Of a DNA stretch of 64,000 nucleotides, positions 5,389 through 59,557 are shown in pieces. Every line of letters begins with the position of its first letter. Position 1 is the first letter of the stretch. Below the pieces are notes generated by a model, which saw only the letters and a program-made list of their open reading frames with translations, did not search any database and was not told the DNA's origin. The stretch comes from Sedimentisphaerales bacterium (GTDB taxonomy: Bacteria > Planctomycetota > Phycisphaerae > Sedimentisphaerales > SM23-30), in assembly GCA_963663965.2 (NCBI GenBank), contig CAXXFK010000015.1, positions 96,001 through 160,000 on the forward strand, in the 5' to 3' direction. The position numbers and the translations under genes were made by a program.

Positions 5389-5490
5389 ATCCTGTCAATC
5401 AGCTGAAAGTCCCGATCGTTCGGGATGATCCTGTCTAAATGGCTGTTAATCTTTGTGGCATGGTGGCTTCGTGTGAAACCGGCTGTTAAC
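5389..5490 (+). repeat. dispersed repeat module shared with the 57.26-57.32 kb region
   Basis: ATCCTGTCAAT..GCTGAAAGTCCC..CGGGAT.ATCCTGTCTAAA.GGCTGTTA here and at about 57262-57321; followed by AAACCGGCTGTTA. Confidence 0.85.
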
Positions 5491-5496
5491 GGCAAT

Positions 5497-5730
5497 TCAC
5501 CTCCGCCGCATAAATCGCCAGTAAATCAAAACAAACACCCCACCCTGTACCAAAGCGGCTAATCCAAGCACAAGACCATAAACATAAAATTTCTGCGTTG
5601 CCAATGTATCATCAGAACCCGGATGCGCGTTCATCCAGACACTCCAGGCTATCCAATAAAACAGCACCCCATCCACAATCAAAGAAATCACCGCCCATAA
5701 ACTCACAATAGTACCCACAGATATTTTCAT
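5497..5730 (-). CDS. small membrane protein with two predicted TM helices
   Basis: Two hydrophobic segments and a basic C-terminus (WRFMRRR); GGGGA upstream. Confidence 0.6.
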   Translation of the reverse strand: MKISVGTIVSLWAVISLIVDGVLFYWIAWSVWMNAHPGSDDTLATQKFYVYGLVLGLAALVQGGVFVLIYWRFMRRR

Positions 5731-6122: not shown

Positions 6123-6366
6123 CCAAACGAACCCAATCCACCTTTTTAAGCCTTAACTATCTATAATAAAACATATTACATCATTTTTCCCGTATCAGAA
6201 TTTTCCCCCTATGTTCCCACACCTATCCATCACTCCCGCCTTAACAAAACCGGCTATTACCCCAACCCGAAACCACCCCACCCGCTGCCATAGCCCAGCC
6301 ACCCCCAATCCAAACGAACCCAACACCTCCAAAAACCATCATAACTACCCATATATAAATATCTTA
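6123..6366 (+). repeat. two copies of bipartite motif CCAAACGAACCCAA-N17/18-TAAC-N18-TTA
   Basis: Copies at 6123-6178 and 6310-6366; a lone CAAAACGAACCCAA also at 6562-6575. Confidence 0.85.
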
Positions 6367-6593
6367 TCACGCATATCTTTTATCAGTGTCTATTCGTGTG
6401 AATTCGTGGTTCACTTCTCGCCCCCGTTACTACCAATCTGACTGTATCTCTTCATAGCTTCGTGCCTTCGTGTGAAATCTTTTTCTTCGGTTGCGTTTCG
6501 ACCGCCCGCGTGGTTAATCTTGATTTTCCACCAGAAATCGCTATCATAAACCTTTTTACCTCAAAACGAACCCAACCCCAAGCGAGAGTACCC

Positions 6594-57103: not shown

Positions 57104-57249
57104 GACTATTCCCCCTCAGAGAATAATAGTTTGGTATTATAAAGCAATTGTTACATGATCTATTGTATCAAAATGTCAACTCTTCTGTCAATCGTGGTAA
57201 ATACGGTATACCTGATCAATTTTTACCGCTGTTTTATTAAATCTCAAAT

Positions 57250-58450
57250 CCCTTTTCTTAAATCCTGTCAATATGCTGAAAGTCCCTATCTGTCGGGATT
57301 ATCCTGTCTAAAAGGCTGTTATATTTTTTCATCTCCCCACCCGTTCCGGAATTTATCCCGATATTCATCGGGACTCCCTTTACTTACTACACGGTGAAAA
57401 TGCATTTCATTTTCCCCTTCCGTACTACAATCCTTCAATTCTTTGTTATTTTAGCGAAGTTTTTTTGTGTTGGAGAATAGCTGATCTTTTAAAACAAAAA
57501 CTTATATCACTTTGCGCCTTCCGTCAACTATTGTCTCTCCCAGCCGTTGCCCACCCTTTGCACCTTAGCGTCTTTGCGTTAAACCGGCTGTTTTTCTGAA
57601 GCTTGGTGTGAGCTATTTTTGGCGTTGCGGCTTGACCGCCCTAAGTCTTTCCGTGTCTTTCCGTGGTCATATCTTCTTATATTTAAATATCTTAACTAAT
57701 TTTAATCTGCGTCCATCTGAATTCATCTGCGGTTCAAACCGCTGTTATATTTTATTTGAATTCCCTCTTTCTTAAATCCTGTATATCCTGTGATCCTGTC
57801 TAAAATGCTTTATTCTTCCCTGCTCCATAATAACCCCCCGGCCATTACCCTCTATGCCCTCCCAATCTCTGTGGTAAACACCGTCTTAAAAATGTATCCC
57901 GTGGCGCAGCCACCCTTAACCTTTTTGATATACTTTCTGATCCTATCTTATTTTAAAAGCATTTTATTACTGATTTCTTCCGTGTTTTTCCGCGTTTTTC
58001 CGTGGTTATAAGTTATTCTATTATAATTACTTAAATCAGTTTTTATCTGCGTCTATCTGTCCCGATATACATCGGGATATGCGGTTGAATCGGCTGTTAT
58101 ATTTTTTCTTAACCTTCGTGAAGTGCCGCAGGTCGAAAGATCCGCCTCAGGAGGACACCCTTCGTGTAGCCGAAGGTCGAAGATCCGCCTCAGGAGGACG
58201 CTTCGTGGTTAACCCCTGCCTTTAAAAAATTTAACTCGTGGCCCCGCCACTCTTTATTTTCATCCATTTCTCAGTTCTATCTTCTTTGATTTCAACTTCT
58301 TAACCCTGATTTCTTCCGTGTGTTCCGTGTATTCATTGGTCATATCTTCTTATATTTCAATATCTTAACTAATTTTCATCTGCGTCCATCTGCGGATAAA
58401 CCGGCTGTTAATTCTTCCTTTTACCTTCATGCTCTTCATGGTGAAAATTT
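57250..58450 (+). repeat. ORF-poor array of degenerate modular repeats (period about 335 bp) made of triplet micro-repeats
   Basis: TTCCGTG-repeat / 25-bp AT box / ATCTGCG-repeat / GCTGTTA block; ATCTGCG starts at 57705, 58045 and 58378. Confidence 0.85.
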
Positions 58451-58490: not shown

Positions 58491-58519
58491 TTGACTATTA
58501 TTGAAATATGATCTATAAT
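58491..58519 (+). promoter_or_regulatory. sigma70-type promoter
   Basis: TTGACT, 17 bp spacer, TATAAT. Confidence 0.7.
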
Positions 58520-58592: not shown

Positions 58593-59378
58593 ATGAATCG
58601 TTCCATGCAAATTCTCGCCCGCGCCCAATACTACCACCGCCCCGAAATCAACAACCTGTTCCTCGCCACCATCAACACCACCCGCCGCCAGCATCAATAT
58701 ATCATCGACACCCACTCCTACCACTGCGAACTGGCCGGCCTCATCGCATACGACCGCCGCGACTACAAACTCCGCGCCACCCGCGCCGGCCACCAGGCCC
58801 TCCAGCGCCTCGTCGTCCAGTCCCGCTCCGACAACAACGTCACCGCCCGCCGCGCCACCGCCCAACTCATCCAGCAATTCATCACCGTTTCCAACTCCTT
58901 CAAAGATTGCCTCCCCGATGGCCCGCCCACCGACCTGGAATACCAGCAGATCATCCAGCAATCCAAAGAAATCCTCTTCGAAGCCGGCTACCAGATCACC
59001 CCCGCCATCCAATGCGACCCCAACGCCACCCCCGAACCAGATCAACAACCCGAAACCCCGCCAATACCAAACGAACCCAAAGTCGGCAAATTCAACCATA
59101 ACACAAACAATAACAAAAACTTAGAAACAAACAATCCAACCCATAACAACCACCGCAACCCCAACTCCCAGTCCAATAATACCCAATCCGATCCACAGAA
59201 CCAAACACCCCATCAATACAACCCCAACCACTCCAACTACCCCCCAGCGCCAAACGAAGCCAATCCCAACAATTACAACTATAACGTCAATTTTAACAAT
59301 AATTTACCACCATACACCCCAACAGAACCATCCCTGGATGACTCAACCAGCACCACCCTCCAATGCCGCAATTACTGA
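58593..59378 (+). CDS. hypothetical protein with helical N-terminal domain and N/P/Q-rich tail (PNEPK, PNEAN)
   Basis: Promoter and AGAGGTG RBS; first about 135 aa of ordinary complexity, tail low complexity. Confidence 0.7.
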   Translation: MNRSMQILARAQYYHRPEINNLFLATINTTRRQHQYIIDTHSYHCELAGLIAYDRRDYKLRATRAGHQALQRLVVQSRSDNNVTARRATAQLIQQFITVSNSFKDCLPDGPPTDLEYQQIIQQSKEILFEAGYQITPAIQCDPNATPEPDQQPETPPIPNEPKVGKFNHNTNNNKNLETNNPTHNNHRNPNSQSNNTQSDPQNQTPHQYNPNHSNYPPAPNEANPNNYNYNVNFNNNLPPYTPTEPSLDDSTSTTLQCRNY

Positions 59379-59419
59379 CATCCCCCAACCACCCGAATCC
59401 CGATGCAAAACGAACCCAA
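59067..59419 (+). repeat. bipartite motif CCAAACGAA(C/G)CCAA-N18-TAAC-N18-TTA, two full copies and one partial
   Basis: 59067-59123, 59250-59306 and CAAAACGAACCCAA at 59406-59419. Confidence 0.85.
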
Positions 59420-59557
59420 CGATAAAAAATAAGGTAACGCCAACCACCACAACCTGACAATCTAACCGCCGTCTTGACCCAGAATTCAAGTCGGCCCGGA
59501 TTATGTGTGCATTGAACTCCTCAAATACGAATTTTATTGAGGGTTTATGTTACCCAT

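Follow-up and report, generated by a model that had tools for sequence, protein, structure and literature searches.

In phage lambda, the cosB site has the layout R3-I1-R2. In the accessible part of PMC9611059, cosB is described as including IHF, HNH and IHF are said to assist packaging, and the pac of phage P22 appears as an asymmetric 22-bp sequence located within terS (gene 3). The TerS of SaPIs redirects the TerL of a helper to its own pac, as set out in the available portion of PMC6687093. As regards GTAs, the available sections of PMC6854486 and PMC7947584 attribute to RcGTA one TerS, no known packaging start sites and no specific DNA-binding domain, and on the accepted view GTAs use no start sites and show no self-preference when they package host DNA (same sections of PMC6854486). 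Here we describe a short asymmetric motif found in a 64,000-nucleotide stretch of a Sedimentisphaerales bacterium genome (the window), a candidate packaging-start signal that would let its gene families load preferentially into the virus-like particles of the host.

The search of the window returned six matches to the motif versus 1.3 expected, a number reached by none of 100 shuffles (0/100). A first-pass annotation of the same DNA had placed four 14-mers on the plus strand (at 6123, 6310, 59067 and 59250) and these positions were borne out (Table 1); two extra copies with one mismatch and without a box (at 6562 and 59406) had been overlooked. The copy at 6562-6575 lies between a sigma70-like promoter and the start of leuS. 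The Rfam search of the window gave one tRNA only.

Table 1. Coordinates of the motif copies, their boxes and the features associated with the family-B gene in the window.
Feature	Position	Strand	Remarks
Core motif copy 1	6123..6136	+	Intergenic, upstream of leuS
25-bp TAA-N19-TTA box of copy 1	6154..6178	+	Offset 17
Core motif copy 2	6310..6323	+	
25-bp box of copy 2	6342..6366	+	Offset 18; right half differs from IHF consensus at one position
Third copy, box-less	6562..6575	+	18 bp before likely leuS ATG (6594)
Mosaic of short dispersed repeats upstream of terS copy	57200..58450	.	Ragged left end of repeated unit
Sigma70-like promoter TTGACT-17-TATAAT	58491..58519	+	Common to terS paralogues; pattern only
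Family-B gene, dispersed paralogue of domesticated small terminase	58593..59378	+	Core ~aa 1-145, near-neutral motif-bearing tail
Core motif copy 3	59067..59080	+	Within terS tail
25-bp box of copy 3	59099..59123	+	Offset 18
Core motif copy 4	59250..59263	+	Within terS tail
25-bp box of copy 4	59282..59306	+	Offset 18
Box-less copy	59406..59419	+	Directly past terS stop
3' end segment with short hairpin (arms near 59471, 59485)	59433..59511	+	Like family-A post-stop segments, by eye

Our analysis of the whole genome (7.24 Mb in 42 contigs) revealed 258 copies of the 12-mer AAAC[GA]AA[CG]CCAA, versus 6.7 expected under an order-5 Markov model, and only 0-7 copies of each of four near-variants. 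The copies are grouped in 118 arrays, including 80 with multiple copies, all but one of which (79/80) are confined to one strand. Two gene families account for part of the arrays, 26 being located at genes of family A (STGP) and 14 at genes of family B, and the remaining 78 stand alone; 43 of the latter have no 40-bp homology to any other sequence. Most copies (190/258) are found outside long genes. The pairing at about 185 bp initially proposed did not hold as a rule, since spacings across the genome range from 27 to 931 bp and in gene-free arrays only 7/59 fall within 178-192 bp; the 183-bp pair was inherited inside one gene family.

The motif is frequently followed by a 25-bp box of the form TAA-N19-TTA. 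Exact boxes at offsets 17-19 from the core were found in 43 of the 133 non-redundant copies, compared to a mean of 0.41 and a maximum of 4 in 1000 shuffles. The box is not obligatory, though (68/138 among solo copies). It begins exactly 18 bp after the core in 117/258 copies (38/133 non-redundant ones), an inner spacer of 19 is seen in 43 copies, none of the other lengths between 10 and 29 exceeding 6, and the sequence between core and box is unconstrained. The spacer of 17-18 given in the first-pass annotation is correct for the four copies listed there, with 17 for the first (6123) and 18 for the rest. Across lineages the offset varies, with 18 in the window genome and 23 in the relative G035 and some other Phycisphaerae; in G035 a symmetric arrangement of motif, box and inverted motif was also observed.

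The consensus of IHF sites is WATCAANNNNTTR. When compared to it, the box reads as two inverted, overlapping 13-bp IHF-like sites. The right half lies within two mismatches of the consensus, at one fixed position, in 24/133 copies (background about 1), and the left half matches the inverted consensus at the same tolerance in 9/133. The earlier suggestion of a polar site beside the site of a DNA-bending protein is thus retained as a pattern match to IHF-like halves. A single gene of the HU/IHF family, not typed as IHF, is present in the genome.

The proposal that constraint acts on the DNA, the encoded peptide being a by-product, is supported by the near-neutral tail of family B and by the use of all three frames. 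In the tails of 260 STGP homologues the motif was read as peptide in 52, 51 and 42 cases by frame, versus 1-2 in shuffles, and on the opposite strand in 8, 4 and 0. The roles in recombination, nicking or helicase loading suggested alongside find no support among the partners of the motif, which point to DNA packaging.

The window gene holding two of the motif copies belongs to family B, a 261-aa gene with 15 dispersed paralogues in the genome, the window ORF among them. The most diverged copy (76%) is located directly upstream of a TerL gene (PHROG 2, E 3e-12) at a syntenic locus, where relatives carry genes of about 140 aa; members of the latter match PHROG small terminases (best E 2.4e-10). 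A TerS profile built from these genes of eight relatives aligned with family B over 77 columns with no shift (hhalign E 9e-5, probability 60%), and its sole matches in the genome were 10 family-B genes including the window ORF (E 1e-4 to 2e-3). Family B itself gave no useful match in Pfam, NCBIfam or PHROG. A word-seeded search for homologues returned three matches, all in its own genome, so that a profile is needed to reach relatives. The structure model was of low confidence (pLDDT 54) and fold searches with it matched nothing, which does not imply a novel fold. Profile and synteny identify family B as the small terminase of the host.

The core of family B (residues 1-97) shows a dN/dS of 0.15, compared to 0.73 for the motif-bearing tail, in eight full-length copies (frameshifted, truncated, shortened-tail and native copies excluded); the core is under purifying selection and the tail evolves near neutrally. 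Both the native terS and its paralogues have the motif within and after the gene. In relatives, none of the 13 native terS-terL loci read, including that of the motif-rich G021, contains an exact copy, and only seven 11-mers with one mismatch were found. The motif thus does not represent the site from which the particle system ancestrally packaged.

As for that system, a TerL orthologue was detected in 33 of the 41 genomes searched and in 21/22 high-quality ones, with one full-length copy each. The terL cluster consists of a LexA/CI-like repressor, an ABC-type ATPase, a conserved unnamed gene, the gene of about 140 aa and TerL. Genes for the portal and major capsid are located 73 kb from terS-terL, the capsid being found in 32/41 genomes; TerL, portal and capsid genes are all single-copy in the window genome. 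There, the repressor-ATPase-terS-terL cluster occupies G000:C30:122206-131764 and the separate portal-capsid operon C30:195449-205173, both conserved across the order. The TerL of this host may be frameshifted at its last residues, judged by eye. The Pfam families Terminase_6N, Phage_capsid and Phage_portal missed the genes of this genome, and PHROG and SU10_MCP detected them. TerS-TerL and capsid would form a domesticated, GTA-like system conserved across the order. This survey covers 41 genomes, and the range of STGP and motif extends into further phyla. A resident prophage on the same contig as the window (G000:C15:217000-250000) has a lambda-type portal with relatives in 9/41 genomes, its own terminase and a tape measure. 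Neither the capsid locus nor this prophage holds the motif.

Family A (STGP) is the motif's older partner. It is a 279-aa gene with the N-terminus ANRRNAQKSTGP, present in 26 copies in the genome, and purifying selection acts on its core (dN/dS 0.07). Of the 18 protein families having at least four copies at 70% identity, only A (26/26) and B (15/15 ORFs) are found near motifs, i.e., within 600 bp; the others, including transposases and reverse transcriptases, have 0-2 copies there. The STGP family is very large (52,899 clusters at E 0.001). Nevertheless, a set of 120 members gave no useful match in Pfam, NCBIfam or PHROG, the profile matched none of the sequences of solved structures, and the ESM Atlas holds only unnamed clusters. 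Fold searches yielded no viral match at E 0.001, and the best result by VIA (Z 8.2) was to generic helical bundles, which does not imply a novel fold.

The association of STGP with the motif reaches beyond this genome. We examined 83 STGP loci (the best 80 of 538 genome matches plus three viral ones) from Acidobacteria, Planctomycetota, Alphaproteobacteria, Chloroflexota, Actinomycetota and others, allowing up to one mismatch to an 11-mer. In 56 loci the STGP start was followed by the motif at a distance of 350-1400 bp, and 27 had none; the density of the motif was 2.6-3.1 per kb at +400 to +800 compared to under 0.2 in distant flanks. It is on the same strand as STGP in 38 of the 56 loci, on the opposite strand in 16 and on both in 2. 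Among 40 relatives, the four motif-rich ones all carry STGP, and in three of them, G021 being the exception, arrays lie directly behind it; the other 36 have motif counts at background, and STGP occurs in 4/36. Similarly, in 110 genomes of the class, STGP was present in 6/8 motif-rich ones (at least five 13-mers) versus 6/102 others, an association whose p-value is inflated because kin are not independent. Dispersal of the motif is not general, since the exact 12-mer AAAACGAASCCA is absent from two complete alphaproteobacterial genomes bearing STGP. When viral contigs were scanned with a 16-mer, the matches were largely due to chance, with STGP in 1/80 loci read.

A number of individual loci are worth recording. 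G021 (L273-L301, odd numbers) has 85 mostly single, box-less sites of about 22 bp with unrelated flanks, the box being mostly missing in the 15 sites read; some appear to lie within long reading frames, a pattern like uptake-sequence drive. At the STGP start in L020, L029, L057, L061 and L079 the codons of the conserved QIEAN peptide nearly reproduce the motif, and the site may have originated from them. The 36-kb viral contig L017 (4857-5851) ends 54 bp past the motif cluster of its STGP gene. STGP and the motif are present even in a streamlined SAR11 genome (L071, Pelagibacter HIMB058). On a Picosynechococcus plasmid (L149), which also carries a tyrosine recombinase, STGP is located behind a primase gene.

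Concerning the relation of STGP to small terminases, a search of 50,697 phage records with an STGP homologue gave a sole match (E 0.02), to two records of Bacillus phage vB_BboS-125. The gene matched lies directly before terL and portal and itself matches three PHROG TerS families. This gene and the STGP profile share 41 columns (probability 96%, E 2.7e-9), covering the segment STGPKTPEGKA...KHG, which could be a generic DNA-binding hook. The terS region of this phage shows no such motif by eye, and comparison of STGP with the native TerS detected no relationship. The STGP model consists of an N-terminal helix-loop-helix followed by a long helical hairpin, a layout reported for TerS cores in the accessible part of PMC9611059. 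Small terminases have a helical-hairpin core that assembles into a ring of 8-12 subunits. For STGP, the prediction with four copies is a lateral packing that uses two faces of the protein, with a score of 0.76 (best control 0.00), at least 86% of contacts in agreement between runs and pLDDT of at least 70. The mark for self-association was reached by 20/30 solved homopairs and 1/23 single chains, a calibration that is rough for four copies. In profile and predicted fold, STGP appears to resemble TerS in part.

The gene neighborhoods are mixed in this respect. A comparison of 150 neighbours of STGP genes with Pfam (first 330 aa, E 1e-8) gave no terminase, portal or capsid domain, and terL was never the immediate downstream neighbour in the loci scanned. 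TerL was found within 5 kb, non-adjacent, in two viral contigs. STGP is preceded in six loci, alphaproteobacterial or viral, by an exonuclease, Gam-like or Erf/Rad52 gene with an HNH domain and then by the motif, which is located about 50 bp ahead of the STGP start. Alphaproteobacterial islands with a RecE-like exonuclease, Erf or Rad52 plus HNH, a Gam-like gene, motif and STGP are seen in L018, L019, L061, L075, L082, L092 and L197. L019 and L061 have a second motif in opposite orientation upstream of the module, and TerL is nearby in L019 and L197.

The repeated units of both families measure 1.5-2.5 kb and consist of a single gene with short repeats only. No terminal repeats or target duplications are visible; the edges fade into mosaics of short dispersed repeats and the 5' ends are ragged. 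Copies of family A end about 85 bp past the stop in a hairpin of variable sequence whose pairing is kept, as judged by eye. In the window, the segments 57200-58450, 5400-5500 and 6390-6520 are dense mosaics of other short dispersed repeats, e.g., of the ATCTGCGTCCATCTGCGG and CTTCGTG types, and small hairpins, which are common to many intergenic regions. PICI/SaPI membership is not indicated, given that no integrase partner was found among the 150 neighbours and no att, replication or repressor genes in the units, nor is membership in insertion sequences or MITEs, given the ragged ends and the lack of a match to a transposase family. Three contig sets from one study contained no joint across the element among the joints listed and were uninformative. 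The A and B genes lie on the C-rich, presumably lagging, strand in 30/40 cases, compared to 41% of host genes (p 2e-5), a bias that fits replication-coupled insertion better than transduction.

This strand bias is also among the observations that favor an alternative, according to which a replicative mobile element of one-ended, rolling-circle or single-strand type has its end or its origin at the motif and the IHF-like box, STGP being its DNA-binding protein, with the nuclease borrowed in trans and terS captured as flanking DNA. IHF sites are common beside transposon ends. The 26 and 15 dispersed copies, those of family A being 89-96% identical at the nucleotide level, the fairly sharp 3' end with its hairpin as opposed to ragged 5' ends, and the symmetric arrangement in G035 would be expected as well. 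However, there is no recurrent transposase, integrase or relaxase among the 150 neighbours (three unrelated IS-type transposases and one reverse transcriptase), the signatures of insertion mentioned above are not visible, and the 43 solo arrays devoid of shared homology are hard to accommodate. It would also be left unexplained why the single amplified host gene of about 4,700 is a small terminase. We consider this scenario rather unlikely. A regulatory role, either as an operator bound by STGP or as an opposite-strand sigma54-like promoter with an upstream IHF site, appears improbable. Read on the reverse strand, the motif is TTGGSTTCGTTTnG and the IHF-like box lies upstream of it, as in the sigma54 layout, and the abundance of copies outside long genes, the one in the leuS leader and the alphaproteobacterial one shortly before STGP would suit it; yet the GG-to-GC distance is one base below the sigma54 spacing and the C is unconserved, orientation to neighbouring genes is near background, copies lie within 3' coding tails in either orientation, and the amplification of genes would be left without a cause.

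The polar and dispersed nature of the 118 arrays, of which 85 are on the C-rich strand, might also recall a host site for chromosome organisation or segregation (KOPS-, matS- or parS-like). Nevertheless, when replichores were inferred from GC skew on the 42 contigs, as relevant to the replichore polarity that the first-pass annotation had wished to see checked, this share (72%) equalled that of shuffled words (68%, p=0.43), which speaks against a KOPS/Chi-type motif with polarity beyond composition. Regular spacing of arrays was likewise rejected, the spacing between them being random (CV 1.07). Taking into account also the background counts in 36 of the 40 relatives, such a role is very improbable. 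Finally, we give hardly any credence to the idea that the repeat has no function and was disseminated by gene conversion, or that it is the DNA reflection of a conserved peptide. The one-mismatch motif copy spelled by the QIEAN codons at the STGP start and the richness of the region in other short repeats speak for it; on the other hand, the motif occurs in every reading frame and on either strand, the exact geometry is kept around a free spacer in 133 non-redundant copies, and the motif is kept beside STGP across phyla.

The amplified host gene that bears the motif is a TerS, and STGP, with which the motif came, contains a module resembling TerS; a pac-like start bound by a TerS-type ring is therefore the simplest reading. 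That packaging starts at the motif in a pac-like manner, next to an IHF/HU bend site, and that selfish modules of terS plus site have spread it, is in our opinion about evenly balanced between true and false. A ring of STGP or TerS would bind the core and HU/IHF would bend the box; TerL would then be recruited, cut nearby and start one-directional headful packaging. DNA close to the site, delivered in excess, could enter recipient genomes by recombination, in some cases where these carry further copies of the short dispersed repeats, yielding ragged-ended copies and more sites. In the present genome the host terS may have gained the site in its 3' end and been amplified in the same way, and solo sites may be remnants or arise by drive. 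Packaging alone makes no copies at new loci, and the recombination into recipients is thus the weakest step.

In a broader and more tentative form, which we find somewhat doubtful, a selfish one-gene element consisting only of a gene of small-terminase type and its packaging site, with more than 50,000 protein clusters across bacteria, would spread by hijacking GTA or phage packaging; here its site would have turned the host terS into a second such element and seeded more than 100 packaging starts, so that GTA packaging would no longer be random. The packaging reading provides a testable function and a defined DNA site for a very large unannotated protein family, and predicts the exact positions where particle DNA begins. 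If true, the selfish terS-plus-site module would be a GTA cheater and a case of molecular drive in bacterial chromosomes. In the open-access literature no paper was found on the motif, the STGP family or this particle system. A search for HGGxSTG returned no paper, and one for AAACGAACCC nothing related by title among the matches listed. The combination of GTA, Phycisphaerae and terminase gave none, and that with Planctomycetes none on the subject by title. Queries on orphan multicopy small terminases gave nothing related, the literature found being otherwise limited to known pac, SaPI, PLE and GTA work.

With respect to the systems described at the outset, the modules resemble SaPIs and PICIs, going by the accessible part of PMC6687093, in that a TerS gene without its own capsid is tied to a cis site and would redirect the TerL of another, and in that pseudo-pac sites are scattered over the chromosome. 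They differ in having no integrase, att, replication or repressor genes and in occurring as dozens of scattered, ragged-ended copies; furthermore, the likely helper here is a domesticated host system and no phage. Like P22 pac, as far as it is described in the available text of PMC9611059, the motif at the native locus is a short asymmetric site in terS upstream of terL; unlike it, the site is unrelated in sequence, has a fixed IHF-like box, and occurs in tandem arrays and hundreds of chromosomal copies. The similarity with lambda cosB concerns a TerS-type site beside an IHF site, and in G035 inverted copies flank the box, whereas no cohesive-end nicking site was identified here and the site is away from a phage genome end. 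As in a GTA of the RcGTA type, domesticated TerS-TerL, portal and capsid genes in split loci are kept across the lineage. In contrast to RcGTA, the TerS of this genome has been amplified 15-fold together with a candidate start site.
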